Source of the DNA: Prosthecobacter sp.
Lineage (GTDB): Bacteria; Verrucomicrobiota; Verrucomicrobiia; Verrucomicrobiales; Verrucomicrobiaceae
Direction of reading: 5' to 3'
Assembly: GCA_044355475.1 (NCBI GenBank)
Contig: JBIKYB010000001.1
Coordinates: forward strand, 1,153-65,152
DNA: 64,000 nucleotides
Part shown: positions 48,734 to 55,084 of the stretch, in pieces
Layout of the letters: the number at the start of each line of letters is the position of its first letter
Numbering within the stretch: position 1 is the stretch's first letter
Made by a program: the position numbers and the translations under genes
Notes under the pieces: generated by a model
Told to the model about the DNA's origin: nothing
What the model saw: only the letters and a program-made list of their open reading frames with translations
Database searches by the model: none

Positions 48734-48846
48734 CCGAGGATCGCGCCCGCGAGATGTGCTGCAAGGCCGTGCGCCTCCGCGTTAACAAACACAACGCCCC
48801 CGCTATCTGCGCTCTGGCTGCCGTTACATCGAAGACATCGCCAGCG
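48734..48846 (+). repeat. Degenerate direct copy of the GNAT 3' region (48200-48322)
   Basis: CCGAGGATCGCGCCCGCGAGATGTGCTGCAAGGCCGTGCG... vs CCGAGGACCGCGCCCGCGACCTGCGCTGCAAGGTCGTGCG... Confidence 0.9.
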
Positions 48847-48906
48847 TATTGGTGTTGTGTAATTCCATGATGGTAAGAGGATTGTTTCGGTGATAGCAGA
48901 GGTTTC

Positions 48907-49473
48907 ATGGTCATCAGCCCCGCAGAAATCCCCGCTTCGCTGCAATTCAATGCCGTTGAATGGTTCTCCCAGTTTTCGGCGGATGGAAAACCAATAGACA
49001 GCACAGAGCTGCAGCCCATCCTCGAGTTCACACTGCTTTGGAGTCTGTTTGAGCGTGAAACCTGTGATCGTTTTGTCCGGCTCGTTGATTTAAGAAAGCA
49101 CGTTGATGAGGCTTCTGCCAAGGATCAACTTATGCGAGACGCATATGAACCGTATCTTCTGTTCTTTCGCACTCGGTATTCGCAATTCGGTGAAGCTGGC
49201 TACTTATCAAGCTCGCTGGAGCCTGCACAACACTCACAGGGATGCGGAGACAGTAATGAAATTCTGCTTCTTCAAAAAGTGCTTGAGGGAACGTGCAAAG
49301 GTTTGAACGACATGGTGTTCGCACTTCTGTTCATCGCCTACAGGATTCGGAACAACCTGTTTCACGGTGAGAAGAACATCTACAGGCTGCATACACAGAG
49401 ATCCCTGTTCGTGGCTGTGAATTCGCTCCTGGCAACTTATCTCGGACAGACATGCCGACGAATGAGGAATTGA
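48907..49473 (+). CDS. HEPN-motif protein (putative RNase toxin)
   Basis: Helical protein with R-x4-H (YRIRNNLFHGEK) and FTLLWSLFE; lower GC. Confidence 0.7.
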   Translation: MVISPAEIPASLQFNAVEWFSQFSADGKPIDSTELQPILEFTLLWSLFERETCDRFVRLVDLRKHVDEASAKDQLMRDAYEPYLLFFRTRYSQFGEAGYLSSSLEPAQHSQGCGDSNEILLLQKVLEGTCKGLNDMVFALLFIAYRIRNNLFHGEKNIYRLHTQRSLFVAVNSLLATYLGQTCRRMRN

Positions 49474-49603
49474 CTCGTGAGTAGCACCCCTTTCCGGTGC
49501 TAGGAGCCAACAAACCCATAACCTGAACGCCTCCGTGTGATAAGTGGCAACTCAGAGACACTGCAAAGGCATTCGAGCAATGAGCCGCGCGGGTTAACCC
49601 TGC

Positions 49604-50431
49604 TCAGGACCGCCCTTGTTCCAAGACAACCCGGAAGCCGCCGTAGGCGTCGTCGGCGATATCCGGGAAGTCGCGCATCGCCGACCGGCATAGGCAGGCG
49701 TCGCTGCACCAGCCGCCGCCGCGGAACACGCGGTACAAGCCTGTTGACGGCCCTCTGGGGTCATCCCCGCCCTCAAGCTCAGGTGAATACCAGTCCGCGC
49801 ACCATTCCCACACATTCCCGTGCATGTCATAGAGTCCCCAGTCATTCGCTTGTTTCCCGCCCACCTCATGGGTCTTATTTCCGCTGTTCTCATAGTACCA
49901 AGCTACGTCATCAAGTTCACCATTGTAAGGACCGGTGGTTCCTGCACGACAGGCATATTCCCACTGCGCCTCCGTAGGTAGCGCATAGTGATAACCGTGA
50001 GGTCCGGTTTCGATGCCGTTGAGCTTCGCGCAAAAGTCCTGCGCATCGTTCCAGCTCACCGTATCAACCGGCAACTGACCGCTGTCATTGAAGCAATTCG
50101 GATTGTTGCCCATCAGTGCCTGCCACTGACTCTGCGTCACCAGTGTGCTGGCCATCCAGAAACCTTGGCTGATCCGCACCTGGACTTGACCTTCACCGAC
50201 CCACCGGTGTTTTTCACCCAGGGGGCTACCCATGAGAAACTCCCCAGGCGGACACCACATCATTTCCATGCCAAGGCTGTTTATAAAGTTGGTCGGAAGA
50301 ACCAAAGCCTGAGCCGCATCGGCCTCGGCCAACAAACGTTTCACCAGATCGATCCGCTGGTCGATGCGACGCACTAATGCCTGGGAGGAACTGACCTGAA
50401 GTTCGAGTTTAGGAAGCTGGTCGTTGCTCAT
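49604..50431 (-). CDS. Formylglycine-generating enzyme (FGE-sulfatase/C-type lectin fold) domain protein
   Basis: FLMGSP, VTQSQW, PVDTVSW, LPTEAQWEYACRAG, NDWGLYDMHGNVWEWC, RGGGW...GFRVV. Confidence 0.92.
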   Translation of the reverse strand: MSNDQLPKLELQVSSSQALVRRIDQRIDLVKRLLAEADAAQALVLPTNFINSLGMEMMWCPPGEFLMGSPLGEKHRWVGEGQVQVRISQGFWMASTLVTQSQWQALMGNNPNCFNDSGQLPVDTVSWNDAQDFCAKLNGIETGPHGYHYALPTEAQWEYACRAGTTGPYNGELDDVAWYYENSGNKTHEVGGKQANDWGLYDMHGNVWEWCADWYSPELEGGDDPRGPSTGLYRVFRGGGWCSDACLCRSAMRDFPDIADDAYGGFRVVLEQGRS

Positions 50432-51378
50432 GAATCCGAGTCCTCCATAGCGCGGGCCAAACGTTCGATCTCTTGATCAATCTTCGCCGCCTGAGCCGAG
50501 AAATAGGCGTTCCATTCGGGATGCTGGGACATGACATGGAAAGCCTCCGACTGCTGAACCGCCGCCAGTTCGGCTCGAGCTTTCTTCAAGGCGGAACGAG
50601 CCGCATGGATGCGTGCCTGAAGGGTGGCTTTCTGATCTGCCGCCGTGGCCTCGGCTGCCACAGTAAAAACACCTGCGGATGTCTGGGCGGCGAGTTGTCT
50701 CACGCGAACGAGATTGCCCGTCTGGTAGGCTTCACTCAATTCGCGGAACATGGCCGCAGCGGCGGCCTGATGCTCCGTCGGCACGACGTCGGGGTGGCAT
50801 TTCTTCGAGGCGCTGCGAAAGAGTTTTTTCAGTTCCTGCTGTCCTTCTTCAGACAAATCCCATTTTGTGCGGGCATCCTCGGCCTCCTGTGCGGCGCTCT
50901 CTTTTTGAAAGTCGTCGAAATCTTGCTGCGCTTGTTTGGCCTCCTCGGCCTTCGTCGGGTCTGCCGCTGCCGCCCGCTTCCGAACGAGCAGTCGCAGTCG
51001 CAGCAGCTTCTCCAATCGTTCGCCCAGGCTTTGATGGTGAGCCGCATGAAAGCGGGAGATTTGATGCGCCAGTTCCGCCTGCTCGACTTCTGCTTCTGCC
51101 AATTCGGACGACAGCCGCTCAAGCTCGGCCTCCAACAACGTGATCTCGGGATCCGTCCAGCGAACCAACCGGGTGCCTTCAGTCAGAAGGGTGGTGATGA
51201 GGACGCTCGCCTCCGCATACCGGTGAGAGCCAAAATGCGCAATGATCTGAGCGATGGCATCTATCTCCTTGTGAGCCTGAAGTCTCATGGCCGCCGTTGA
51301 GGCCAGCTCGACATCGCCCAGATCAAGCAAGGCCTTCAACGCCTGTAGGCGGGAGGTGAGTTCAGGGGAAAGAGTCAT
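50428..51378 (-). CDS. Coiled-coil protein with internal J-domain
   Basis: ELKKLFRSASKKCHPD...MFRELSEAY flanked by coiled coils; 4-bp overlap with the FGE gene. Confidence 0.8.
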   Translation of the reverse strand: MTLSPELTSRLQALKALLDLGDVELASTAAMRLQAHKEIDAIAQIIAHFGSHRYAEASVLITTLLTEGTRLVRWTDPEITLLEAELERLSSELAEAEVEQAELAHQISRFHAAHHQSLGERLEKLLRLRLLVRKRAAAADPTKAEEAKQAQQDFDDFQKESAAQEAEDARTKWDLSEEGQQELKKLFRSASKKCHPDVVPTEHQAAAAAMFRELSEAYQTGNLVRVRQLAAQTSAGVFTVAAEATAADQKATLQARIHAARSALKKARAELAAVQQSEAFHVMSQHPEWNAYFSAQAAKIDQEIERLARAMEDSDS

Positions 51379-51563
51379 GATGAAAGTGAGGCTTTGGCTT
51401 TCCGCCGCCCGACATGGAGGAACCGACTAGAGTTTACCCGTTGATGCGCTGCAAGTCGGTTTTGATTTAGCTAAAGAGAGGTCGCAAAGAAAACTCTCTG
51501 ACACATCGCTATGCTGTCGAAGGCGATGGTTGACACGCCATGAGCGGCCATTGATGTGACGCG

Positions 51564-54233
51564 GTGATTCCACTCGACCTCTCTCTCGCCGATGTTCCCA
51601 GCCTGCCTGCGCATGCGGCGCGGCTGCTGGCGAAGGAGGGGATCAAGACGGTGGCGGATGTGGTGTGGCATCTGCCGTTCCGGCATGAGGATCGGCGGCA
51701 GATGCAGGCGCTGGCGTTTCAGGCGGGCCTGCTTCCGTCTTGCCATCATGTTTTGATCACCAAGACGGGGAACAAGTTCTTTGGCGGCCGTTCCGGAGTG
51801 TTTGAGGCGGTGGTGCGGCATGCGACGGGGCTGCTGGGCCAGCAGCTCACGCTGAAGTGGTGGAACATGCCGTTCATGAGCCGGGTGCTGGCTGAAGGGC
51901 AGGAATTGATCGTCTATGGCGTGATCAAGGACTCGAAGGGCCGCCTGAGCATGTCTCACCCGGAGTATGAGATTGTCAAAGGCGGTGCGGATGACGATGC
52001 GGAGCAGATTCACACCGGGCGCATCACGCCGATCTACCGCCTGAAGGGCGCGATGACTCAAAAAGCGCTGCGCGTGGCCGCGTGGCATGTGTGCCAGGCG
52101 CTGCCAGGAGCGTTTTGCGAGGATCTGCTCCCAATGCCGAGCGCGGAGGGCGAGTTCGCGGGCCAAACGCGGTCGCTGGCGCTGCGGGAGGTGCATTTTC
52201 CTTCGAGCATGGAGAAACTGGATCAGGCGCGGCGCTATCTCGCGCTGGAGGAGTTCTACGGCTACCAGCTCCGCGTGGCACGGCGGAAGCGGCGGGTGAT
52301 TGAATCCGGCGGGCGAAAACAAATCGGCACGGGCGAGCTGCTGCGCGTTTTTTTCAATGAGCTGCCCTTCCAGCTCACGACGGCACAGCAGCGCTGCCTG
52401 GACGAGATTCATCGCGACATGGCCTCCGGTGCGCCGATGAACCGTCTGCTGCATGGCGATGTGGGCAGCGGCAAAACGGTGGTGGCCTTTGCGGCCATGC
52501 TGAGGGCGGTGGAGTCTGGTCGTCAGGCCGTGCTGATGGCTCCGACGCAGATTTTGGCCGAGCAGCATGCCCGCAATGCGCGCAAGTGGCTGGAGCCGCT
52601 GGGCCTGCGCGTGGCGCTGCGGACGGGATCGAAACGCGAGGATGGAGATGGCTTGGAATTGCTTGGCAGGAGCGCACGCGTCCCGCGTGCTGTTTCCCGC
52701 GTCTCGCGGGAAACTTACCCAGCGTCCTCGCAAGAAACGCGTTACTCCCGCAGGCGTTTGCCGCACTTTGAGCGGCCCTGGGCGAAGTATTTCATCACGT
52801 TAAGCACAGCGGCACGTCGCAAGCTGCCGGAAAACACGCGGCAGATCGTGCTGGACGCGATTCGCCACTTTCACGGGAATCGCTATCACCTGTATGCCGC
52901 ATGTGTGATGCCAGATCATGTCCACATGCTGATTGAACCGGCGATTTGTGAACGGGAACCGGCTTCGGAATCTCCAGTGTTTCATAAGCTGACAGACATT
53001 CTGCATTCGCTCAAATCCTTCACGGCACATGAGATCGTGAAGGCAGGCTGGCATGATCAGCGGGTGTGGGAGAAGGAATCGTTTGATCGGCTGATTCGGT
53101 CGGAGGCGGACTTGCAGGAGAAATTTGAGTACATCGTGGGGAATCCCCAGGAAGCGGGGCTGGTGGGGCCGGAGGTGGTCTATCCGTGGTTGTGGGTGCC
53201 TGGGGACGGTGCTCCGCGAGACGCGGAGCACAGCACGCGGGACGCGTGCGCTCCAACTTTGCGTGGTCCAGAGATCGTCATCGGCACGCATGCGCTGCTG
53301 CATGATGCGGAGCTGATGCATAACACGGGGATCGTGGTCATCGACGAGCAGCACAAGTTTGGCGTGGCGCAGCGGGCGAAGCTGATCCGCAAGGGCGACA
53401 CGCCGGATGTGCTGGTGATGACGGCCACGCCGATCCCGCGCACCCTGACGCTGACGATTTACGGCGATCTGGAGGTCTCGACGATCGACCAAAAGCCACG
53501 TGATGGGGTGAAGATCATCACGAAGGTGCGACCGAAGACGAAGCTGAAGGAGGCGGCGAAGTTTTTGCGCGAGCAGATCGAGGAAGGCCGCCAGGGTTAC
53601 ATCGTGTATGCGCTGATCGATGAATCGGAGAAGCTGGAGGCCGGTGCGGCGACGAAAGGGCACGAGGAGTGGTCCAAACTGCTCGCGCCCTGCGAGGTGG
53701 GCCTGCTGCATGGCCGGATGAGCGCGGAGGAGAAGGAGGATGTGATGAAACGCTTCCGTGCGGGCAAGCTGGACGCGCTGGTTTCGACGACGGTGATCGA
53801 AGTCGGCATCGACGTACCGAACGCGACGGTGATGTTCATTCACGACGCTGGCCGCTTTGGCCTCGCGCAGCTTCATCAGCTTCGCGGGCGCATCGGTCGC
53901 GGAGCGCATACGAGCTACTGCGTGCTGTTTGTGGAAGACAAGGACGAGGACAACCGCCAGCGCCTCGCGATCATGGAGGAGACGAGCGACGGCTTCCAAA
54001 TCGCCGAGGAAGACCTGCGGCGGCGTGGTCCGGGCGATGTTTTGGGCCATGCGCAGAGTGGACAGGCACCGCTGCTGTTTGGTGAGCTGCTGGCGGACAC
54101 GCGTTTGGTGCGCTTGGCGCGGCAGCTTGCCGAGAAGACGCTGGATGAAGATCCGCATCTGCAACGCCCAGCGCTGGCGGCGTTCCGGGATGAACCGGTC
54201 GTGGCGGAGAAGGCGCAGGCGATGATGCAGTGA
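51564..54233 (+). CDS. recG: ATP-dependent DNA helicase RecG carrying an in-frame transposase insertion
   Basis: HLPFRHEDR, GDVGSGKT, MAPTQILAEQH, IGTHAL, IDEQHKFG, MTATPIPRTL, QLHQLRGRIGRG, DLRRRGPG. Confidence 0.95.
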   Translation: MIPLDLSLADVPSLPAHAARLLAKEGIKTVADVVWHLPFRHEDRRQMQALAFQAGLLPSCHHVLITKTGNKFFGGRSGVFEAVVRHATGLLGQQLTLKWWNMPFMSRVLAEGQELIVYGVIKDSKGRLSMSHPEYEIVKGGADDDAEQIHTGRITPIYRLKGAMTQKALRVAAWHVCQALPGAFCEDLLPMPSAEGEFAGQTRSLALREVHFPSSMEKLDQARRYLALEEFYGYQLRVARRKRRVIESGGRKQIGTGELLRVFFNELPFQLTTAQQRCLDEIHRDMASGAPMNRLLHGDVGSGKTVVAFAAMLRAVESGRQAVLMAPTQILAEQHARNARKWLEPLGLRVALRTGSKREDGDGLELLGRSARVPRAVSRVSRETYPASSQETRYSRRRLPHFERPWAKYFITLSTAARRKLPENTRQIVLDAIRHFHGNRYHLYAACVMPDHVHMLIEPAICEREPASESPVFHKLTDILHSLKSFTAHEIVKAGWHDQRVWEKESFDRLIRSEADLQEKFEYIVGNPQEAGLVGPEVVYPWLWVPGDGAPRDAEHSTRDACAPTLRGPEIVIGTHALLHDAELMHNTGIVVIDEQHKFGVAQRAKLIRKGDTPDVLVMTATPIPRTLTLTIYGDLEVSTIDQKPRDGVKIITKVRPKTKLKEAAKFLREQIEEGRQGYIVYALIDESEKLEAGAATKGHEEWSKLLAPCEVGLLHGRMSAEEKEDVMKRFRAGKLDALVSTTVIEVGIDVPNATVMFIHDAGRFGLAQLHQLRGRIGRGAHTSYCVLFVEDKDEDNRQRLAIMEETSDGFQIAEEDLRRRGPGDVLGHAQSGQAPLLFGELLADTRLVRLARQLAEKTLDEDPHLQRPALAAFRDEPVVAEKAQAMMQ
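52669..53254 (+). mobile_element. REP-flanked HUH/Y1 tyrosine transposase (RAYT) element, in-frame within recG
   Basis: 41-bp inverted arms 52669-52709 and 53214-53254 (38/41); RRRLPHF, YFIT, VMPDHVH, LKSFTA, WEKESFDRLIR, YIVGNPQEAGLV, YPW. Confidence 0.92.
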
Positions 54234-54295
54234 GCCGCCGCATCTTTAAGAGAACTTGACGTGCGGAGCTTTTACCCGGTCAGTACTCGTGTGCC

Positions 54296-55084
54296 ATGCA
54301 CCCCACTGCCCCAAACCATGCGCGAGCAATGCTCGTGGATCAAACCGAGGTCGCCCGCCAGCGCCACCGGCGCGGTAGGCCACGTTTTGTGACGCTGGCG
54401 CGTGTCACCATCCTCGCCTCAGCGATGACGGGTGTCGGGGTAGGCGCTTGGTGGCTGAAAAGCGAGGTGCCACATGCGCAGGTCGCAGAAGCGGTGCGCG
54501 AATCGCCACTGGTGGAGGCACGCAGCCTCAAGCCGCTGCTGGAGACGGCCCAACCCTCTGAAATGGCCGCCTACGGGCTGAAAAAAAGTCCGAACACCGA
54601 ACCTGCGATCACGCCGGAGCCTGCGAGGAGTCATTCAGCCCCCACCCAGTCAGCGCTGCCAGTTTGGCTGGTGGCAGACGACGCGAAGTCTGCTGAGCTG
54701 CTGCGGCAAAGCCTGCGCGAGCGAGGAGCGCGGCAGATGGGGCAGTCGGTGCGCCTGGCGATGCTGAATCTGGCCGAACTGCTCGCTATGGATGAAAAGA
54801 CCTGGGCGGCGGACATGAAGATGGCGTCCGCGAATGACAATCACATCTCGGCGCTGGTGCTGACGTTTTATCTTTACCACCTCGACCGTGCGGCTGACGG
54901 CGCGGGCGTGAACGCACTGCGGCAGGCTCTCGAAAATGGCATGTCGCAGGACCAGGCGGTGCGGGAGTTCATCCTCGCCGGACGGAGTGTTGCGGAGATC
55001 GAGCGCGAGATGGGCGTCGCGTTTGCCAGCGTCGGCATCGAGCTACAGTTCACCCGGCGCGGCAGGGCGGTGTTCAAGCCCTGA
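54296..55084 (+). CDS. Hypothetical membrane-anchored protein
   Basis: 262-aa ORF with one N-terminal TM segment. Confidence 0.6.
   Translation: MHPTAPNHARAMLVDQTEVARQRHRRGRPRFVTLARVTILASAMTGVGVGAWWLKSEVPHAQVAEAVRESPLVEARSLKPLLETAQPSEMAAYGLKKSPNTEPAITPEPARSHSAPTQSALPVWLVADDAKSAELLRQSLRERGARQMGQSVRLAMLNLAELLAMDEKTWAADMKMASANDNHISALVLTFYLYHLDRAADGAGVNALRQALENGMSQDQAVREFILAGRSVAEIEREMGVAFASVGIELQFTRRGRAVFKP

Follow-up and report, generated by a model that had tools for sequence, protein, structure and literature searches.

A RAYT transposase cassette in frame within recG of Prosthecobacter: a candidate self-homing element without start or stop codons of its own

The cassette and its host gene

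The window analyzed here is a 64,000-nucleotide (nt) stretch of Prosthecobacter sp. (assembly GCA_044355475.1, contig JBIKYB010000001.1, positions 1,153 to 65,152, forward strand; genome G000 in the comparisons below). It contains recG as one stop-free open reading frame (ORF) at 51564-54233, encoding 889 amino acids (aa). Inside this gene, and entirely in its reading frame, is a cassette made up of a hairpin arm of the repetitive extragenic palindrome (REP) class, a Y1 transposase of the REP-associated tyrosine transposase (RAYT) type, and an inverted REP arm. The cassette possesses neither an ATG nor a stop codon of its own and is likely translated as part of the helicase protein. With slightly better than even confidence, and on comparative sequence evidence, we read it as a permanent extra domain of RecG that would persist by converting the empty recG alleles of relatives through its own hairpin-directed single-strand cutting. 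The features are as follows.

51564..54233, + strand: recG with cassette, 889-codon ORF; seven checked helicase motifs present; match to NF008168
51564..52668, + strand: RecG N-terminal part, comprising the wedge domain, Walker A, motif Ia and the variable loop up to the cassette
52669..52714, + strand: left REP arm, consisting of GGAG, one C, a 7-bp hairpin and a 10-bp hairpin; translated; predicted disordered linker
52737..53198, + strand: RAYT/TnpA-REP-like Y1 HUH core; lacks a stop and, ahead of the HUH region, any in-frame ATG
52917..52925, + strand: HUH motif His-Val-His, aa 452-454; HxH in 17/17 genus alleles
53130..53132, + strand: predicted catalytic Tyr (TAC), aa 523; aligned with the 4ER8 Tyr region; present in 16/17 genus alleles
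53209..53254, − strand: right REP arm, inverted, with GGAG on the bottom strand and two hairpins; the top strand is translated
53255..53272, + strand: 18-nt tail from the right arm to conserved RecG; varies among alleles; moved with the cassette in G000/G067
53273..54233, + strand: RecG C-terminal part, comprising IGTHAL, DEQH, motifs III to VI and domain 3

A preliminary description of this DNA, made from the letters alone, had reported the single 889-codon frame and the lack of transposase start and stop signals, and both are borne out by a reading of the ORF. Its bounds for the insert were also right, while its in-frame length of about 195 codons needs amending: from arm tip to arm tip the cassette measures 586 nt, which is not a multiple of three. 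The junction residues are LLGRSAR and DACAPTL. The site lies in a loop where the motif-to-motif spacing ranges from 42 to 67 residues across empty alleles.

The RecG profile NF008168 matches the protein as two stretches on either side of a gap (741 bits; cut-off 718); the wedge domain and motifs I to VI are intact, and all seven checked helicase motifs are present. A second intact recG, which would have changed the picture, was not found by tblastn of the 88.6%-complete assembly; another match, on contig C164 (36-41% identity, inside a 1100-aa frame), is read as mfd. That the source assembly is in 587 contigs might favor an artefact, or else a dead, recent insertion. Both junctions are spanned by contigs of the lake metagenomes X3, X4 and X16 (no differences) and X10 (one difference), and no flag marks any of these four as a possible source; misassembly is thereby ruled out. 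Furthermore, 16 other genomes carry the cassette, which is under purifying selection. We regard this explanation as practically negligible.

In full and empty RecG proteins alike, the residues just before the insertion site (window 52641-52664) often read LPLF, MELF or ELF (loci L026-L030 and the recG loci of species-representative genomes), presumably resembling a sliding-clamp-binding motif.

The transposase core

The search of the insert with Pfam Y1_Tnp, which the preliminary description had proposed, gives a match scoring 23.1 bits, where the cut-off is 23. NCBIfam NF047646 (RAYT) matches with an E value of 2e-21 and 76.4 bits, below its cut-off of 80. The top profile match is PDB 4ER8, the Escherichia coli TnpA-REP (E 0.008), while phmmer of the core against PDB sequences returned no match. 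The positions given earlier for His-Val-His and for the Tyr at 53130 proved correct.

AlphaFold2 modeling of the core alone yielded a mean predicted local distance difference test (pLDDT) score of 89.3; Foldseek again placed 4ER8 first (E 8.3e-7, TM 0.59), with IS200/IS605 transposases at ranks 2-30. The whole-protein model has a mean pLDDT of 74.4 and RecG 1GM5 as its best fold match; values below 50 occur in it only at aa 361-402 and 553-567, flanking the folded core. The transposase is thus predicted to fold independently, with the two translated arms as disordered linkers.

The REP arms and the question of removal

The inverted arms (52669-52709 and 53214-53254) have a length of 41 nt each and are complementary at 38 of 41 positions (93%), with two hairpins per arm, in agreement with the preliminary description. 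Each begins GGAG-C-GCACGCG-TCC-CGCGTGC, followed by a second, 10-bp hairpin; the GGAG and hairpin start described previously is present, with one C between the two rather than direct adjacency. The two-hairpin fold of each arm is more stable than that of shuffled sequences (z −3.9 to −4.3). Among the genus alleles, hairpin 1 is paired in 117/119 cells on the left and 119/119 on the right, and hairpin 2 in 162/170 and 167/170 cells, with compensatory changes on the right. The left and right hairpin-2 stems agree with each other at just 215 of 340 positions, though each pairs internally. Because the hairpins stay paired while the left and right stems diverge, the comparison points to selection on local hairpins rather than on arm-to-arm pairing. 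RAYTs recognize hairpins on single-stranded DNA, according to the available text of PMC8266576.

These results bear on the possibility that pairing of its ends allows the cassette to be taken out of the DNA, RNA or protein, leaving a normal RecG. Folding of the whole insert as RNA is indeed predicted to give a single long stem (z −5.3 vs 20 shuffles), whereas the poor agreement of the hairpin-2 stems speaks against paired ends. No precise-excision joint was seen in eight sequencing runs, searched as contigs, in which rare forms could be lost. The empty joints that do occur (52661 to 53274) carry 33 other letters and lie on divergent contigs of related species, which rules them out as excision products. 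A contig from RNA library X24, from a relative (depth 2, 11 differences), crosses the right junction with the cassette in place, weak evidence in that DNA carry-over is possible; the RNA libraries X19, X20, X21 and X24 contain small shares, from relatives or possibly from DNA. Pfam revealed no intein family in the full protein or the insert, and Rfam no intron family in 51300-54500, where the one match, to a snoRNA (E 0.18), is attributed to chance. Finally, for an element that is taken out, there would be no need to keep the host frame open through both arms. Removal at any of the three levels, of which the preliminary description had raised DNA and RNA, is very improbable.

Independent expression was considered as well. 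No sigma-70-like promoter was found in 51300-54400, nor is an in-frame start conserved close to the left arm, where 5 of 17 alleles have none; an internal translation start for the transposase was accordingly rejected.

REP copies elsewhere in the genome

With up to three mismatches, the 21-nt arm core occurs 12 times in G000, both arms included, and several copies form inverted pairs. None lies within 1.5 kb of the seven other RAYT genes of this genome, making the nested RAYT the only cognate enzyme found for this REP. Extra REP copies are present in 17/17 carriers of the cassette (median 7) vs 32/88 non-carriers (median 0), a comparison in which kin are not independent.

Several copies merit separate mention. 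In single-contig genome G107, no clustering of REPs near recG was observed; 37 of 44 matches are packed into 0.3 Mb (C1, 5.13-5.41 Mb), some 2 Mb from recG. In G000, a 152-bp inverted pair (C30:2887-3038) is found where a stretch of 1026 open codons has its 5′ end; it may be translated, or may lie upstream of the true start. The copy at G000 C218:2506-2534 has 8 nt of outer flank in common with the left recG junction (window 52661-52668), as if the flank had travelled with the hairpin. An inverted pair is found just upstream of recG in five relatives (G007:C41:169432-169584, G077:C136:4428-4580, G087:C48:32601-32753, G090:C72:122837-122989 and G102:C1:1835324-1835475), three of which have an empty recG; G000 is without such a pair there.

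Full and empty recG alleles within the genus

Alignment of recG across relatives, as had been suggested, revealed the empty site and a full/empty dimorphism: recG was matched in 104 of 105 genus genomes, and the cassette is carried by 17 and missing from 88 of the 105. The carriers include named Prosthecobacter species (as RecG proteins). All 17 close homologs of the core (63-100% identity) sit in recG, the next RAYTs being at most 51% identical over partial length, and every cassette is exactly 586 bp from tip to tip. The insert is under purifying selection, with a median core dN/dS of 0.083 (the 55 of 136 pairs with dS 0.05-1.5). HxH is kept in 17/17 alleles and Tyr in 16.

The dN/dS of the helicase motor is 0.041 in 45 full-full pairs and likewise 0.041 in 231 empty-empty pairs, and all seven checked motifs are found in 17/17 carriers. 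Since the motor is equally constrained with and without the cassette and its motifs are all present, the fusion would appear to be a functional RecG.

On the RecG tree (86 rows; short loci L004, L015 and L058 were left out, and L025 is without its second junction), full and empty alleles are interspersed. In the clade around G000, 29 empties have one common loop (MRGKSSS-like), with ten carriers among them. The empty loop tracks host distance (Mantel r 0.47, 0/2000 permutations; three short-loop empties left out); the empties of this clade are thus not independent deletions. The empties of G078 and G065 retain part or all of the left arm, a sequence scar which shows that loss by imprecise deletion occurs.

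A recent transfer between G000 and G067

One pair of full alleles stands apart. Between G000 and G067, the core shows differences at 5 of its 103 synonymous sites and the flanks at 116 of their 487 (Fisher p 3e-6); the core/flank ratio of 0.20 compares with 0.98-1.96 in the other 44 of 45 pairs. Differences are dense up to 52665 and then drop inside the cassette. Directly before AGGAG, to within 2-3 nt of the left tip, G067 has the empty-allele codons (ATG CGC) of its sister G061; on the right it has the 18-nt tail of G000 and then returns to G061-type sequence. From these junctions it follows that the cassette replaced approximately 20-30 nt of an empty allele, with the left crossover in 2 shared nt. 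This appears to be a recent, homing-like move of the cassette into the empty recG of a related species, and we infer from the junction sequences that the cuts were made by the RAYT. No clear long co-conversion tracts were seen around the junctions in 30-nt and 90-nt windows. G061-type empty alleles co-occur with this genome in lake samples.

Nested copies in other genes and genomes

A search with the insert region gave 2551 candidates, of which 1638 are proteins of 488-1556 aa; all 120 of the matches listed carry RecG, AlaRS, ThrRS, CarB or MetH domains. Among 251 genomes of the order, with at most 12 candidates scored per genome, 29 (ten of them from Prosthecobacter itself) have one clade member each, always in an open frame of 610-1341 aa (13 recG and 16 alaS, one alaS locus being possibly frameshifted).

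Two further sets of loci, from species-representative genomes and from metagenomes, were ranked by likeness to this cassette. The former comprises 79 loci, 67 of which were parsed; the frame is open past both arms in 65 of the 67, and no in-frame ATG occurs between left arm and core in any. The motif pattern missed 12 of these 79 loci, and 20 of 109 in a separate parse; seven of the 12 were classified later and the 20 by blastx. Sixty species-representative loci could be assigned (alaS 27, recG 18, metH 9, thrS 6), and 77 of 80 metagenome loci are in such hosts; the metagenome scan found no strain-level relatives, the best being 81% identical. The Tyr motif is retained in nearly all nested cores (recG 53/55, alaS 78/80, metH 34/34, thrS 19/19, carB 18/18). 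More distant cores reside in proteins with shikimate kinase, pyruvate formate lyase, PriA, biotin ligase and ValRS domains, as well as PurH, Hsp70, Ham1 and methylase domains.

Short relatives were found as well, in the form of 317 proteins of 84-270 aa with identities of 60% at best. Of 15 inspected, 13 start a few residues before the translated left arm and end after the translated right arm; the other two look like host fragments. A frame open through both arms is, judging by these sequences, a property of the whole clade, which explains why the cassette can land in frame. On a FastTree phylogeny of 174 of 381 cores, the recG-nested cores do not form one clade: ten changes are needed, at least four of them forced by starred branches.

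The survey of housekeeping ORFs for nested Y1_Tnp cores, advised in the preliminary description, has thus revealed them in recG, alaS, metH, thrS and carB. That description had also entertained a domesticated helicase-nuclease partnership, in which fusion to RecG specifically would recruit the HUH nuclease to stalled forks and their single-stranded DNA. In its favor, DNA is the substrate of both partners, and the same RecG loop is used in several Verrucomicrobiota groups. Because the same clade lives in recG, alaS, metH, thrS and carB, we see no helicase-specific partnership: most nested copies are in tRNA synthetases and metabolic enzymes (see the 60 assigned loci above), 88 of the 105 congeners do without the cassette, and G065 and G078 bear deletion scars. 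A RecG-specific role is very improbable.

Other arrangements were noted. Some alaS and metH genes have two clade cassettes in one ORF or locus (P0007, L126 and L165), and in L125 the protein that houses a clade member has an HHH_6 domain, as would fit the replicative polymerase DnaE. The genus also has another, less closely related RAYT lineage (at most 51% identity, with a longer N-terminal part) in frame inside genes at four loci, namely L110, L111, L112 and L115 (in G115, G047, G092 and G050), the hosts being a methionine synthase, a zinc-dehydrogenase/Gfo-Idh-MocA oxidoreductase (twice) and a leucyl-tRNA synthetase.

How the cassette may persist

In the mechanism we propose, the host gene would supply promoter, ribosome entry and stop. 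The RAYT domain would bind its GGAG hairpin on single-stranded DNA and cut nearby, the cassette would be joined into the corresponding loop of an empty allele, some 20-30 nt of which would be replaced, and only in-frame products would survive. The same enzyme would also spread copies of the REP family to other parts of the genome. Gains might then be balanced by deletions as in the intein homing cycle, without splicing.

The principal alternative is a domesticated RAYT, useful to its host, which borrows recG for expression, is translated in the fusion and maintains the REPs, but does not move itself; alleles would be swapped by ordinary homologous recombination and kept by selection on some benefit of the RAYT. 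It accords with the finding of a single copy in each of the 29 positive genomes, with the deep congruence with the host tree, with absence from plasmids and phages, and with the single-copy, vertically inherited RAYTs of the available text of 10.1101/119735. On the other hand, repeated new insertions would be needed, given that the recG cores are not one clade and that many unrelated genes serve as hosts. The left crossover of G067 also fell in just 2 shared nt; such a length is short for RecA-type exchange. We hold this alternative to be unlikely, though by no means negligible.

A number of observations weigh against self-homing. The inserts mostly follow the host tree (Mantel r 0.75, 2/5000 permutations), and host clades held together on the insert tree were not rejected by approximately unbiased (AU) tests (p-AU 0.18 and 0.26). 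As loops and inserts both track their hosts, the two alleles have, by this comparison, long coexisted and been exchanged among close kin. Only one clear recent transfer was found among 45 pairs, and full/empty homology also ends at the REP tip, so ordinary recombination could stop there. No cassette homolog was found on plasmids or phages that might act as a vehicle. In hand-picked sister pairs the REP excess is weak, carriers being higher in 9, equal in 2 and lower in 4 of 15. One allele, that of G087 (L033), has lost the Tyr, having Cys instead. The available text of Bertels and Rainey (10.1101/2021.07.10.451892) describes RAYTs as being without evidence of mediating their own transposition.

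As for G087, its genome has 15 extra REP copies despite the Tyr-to-Cys allele, possibly reflecting a recent loss of activity.

Tentatively, and with somewhat less than even confidence, we further suggest that such cassettes constitute a class of self-homing HUH elements without start or stop of their own, translated as lasting domains of housekeeping enzymes and spreading into empty alleles by cuts at their REP tips, a splice-free counterpart of inteins, and that this is the first RAYT found to move its own gene. What this locus contributes is the full/empty dimorphism and one recent transfer with tight boundaries. Because both allele types of a single site occur in close relatives, the self-mobility of RAYTs can be put to the test here. 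If the reading is right, a mobile element lives without splicing in conserved genes, which in the case of alaS or thrS are presumably essential, with its hairpin ends translated into linkers on either side of an enzyme of 150 residues.

Comparison with known systems

Like inteins with homing endonucleases, the cassette is found in frame in conserved genes, at fixed sites and with a patchy full/empty distribution, and the one recent transfer may reflect allele conversion of the intein kind. Inteins sit in active sites, and their homing enzyme is a double-strand endonuclease. The cassette, in contrast, occupies a variable loop, encodes a single-strand HUH transposase, and has no Hint splicing domain or terminal splice residues. 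The intein-like location without protein splicing posited in the preliminary description is nevertheless supported by the in-frame site, the lack of an intein domain and purifying selection, as is its notion of a tolerated in-frame element by the predicted linkers and by a helicase motor constrained as in the empties.

An IStron would have its transposase within a self-splicing intron of group I or II, and Rfam shows none in 51300-54500. IS200/IS605 TnpA proteins (IS608, ISDra2) share the fold family and hairpin ends, whereas the cassette is single copy, has inverted identical ends and no gene signals of its own, lacks plasmid or phage copies, and has variable outer boundaries with target sequence replaced. 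In its apparent workings the cassette resembles a REPtron, though one housed after the manner of an intein; the two have in common HUH and Tyr motifs with 4ER8 (E. coli TnpA-REP; NF047646) as top fold match, inverted tetranucleotide-tagged hairpins, cognate REP pairs elsewhere and one copy per genome. It differs from the REPtron in having no start or stop inside its arms, both of which are translated, in lying inside a housekeeping ORF rather than extragenically, in scoring below the NF047646 cut-off, and in its GGAG tag as against GTAG or GTGG (published form GT[AG]G; available text of PMC6006769).

In-frame intragenic REPs and Rickettsia palindromic elements are likewise palindromes translated within genes, although these are non-autonomous repeats of approximately 20-82 aa, and here a whole transposase unit of some 196 aa is involved. 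Such palindromes have been proposed to be tolerated in loops and linkers (available texts of PMC3733652 and PMC6006769). In the accessible text of Di Nocera 2013 (PMC3733652), in-frame REPs are commonest for GTAG repeats in the verrucomicrobium Opitutus terrae, and RAYT-like genes with repeats overlapping the gene ends are described. Quentin 2018 (PMC6006769), in the text available, reports in-frame REPs inside RAYT genes, and unexpectedly long proteins were discarded there as fusions or annotation errors; hence such fusions have been filtered, as long outliers, from at least one published survey. RAYTs are described as single-copy and extragenic in the main texts of Bertels 2017 (10.1101/119735) and Bertels and Rainey (10.1101/2021.07.10.451892), from which the words “fusion,” “in-frame” and “intragenic” are absent. 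A search of the openly accessible literature yielded no account of entire RAYT cassettes placed in frame within housekeeping genes. Automated database names do exist (“RecG-like helicase/REP element-mobilizing transposase RayT”), and these fusions distort the annotation of core genes in Verrucomicrobiota.

Neighboring genes

Upstream of recG (48907-51378) lie a lower-GC ORF (GC 0.49 at 48800-49399), a gene with an FGE-sulfatase domain and one with a DnaJ domain, possibly, from their composition and content, a small acquired block.

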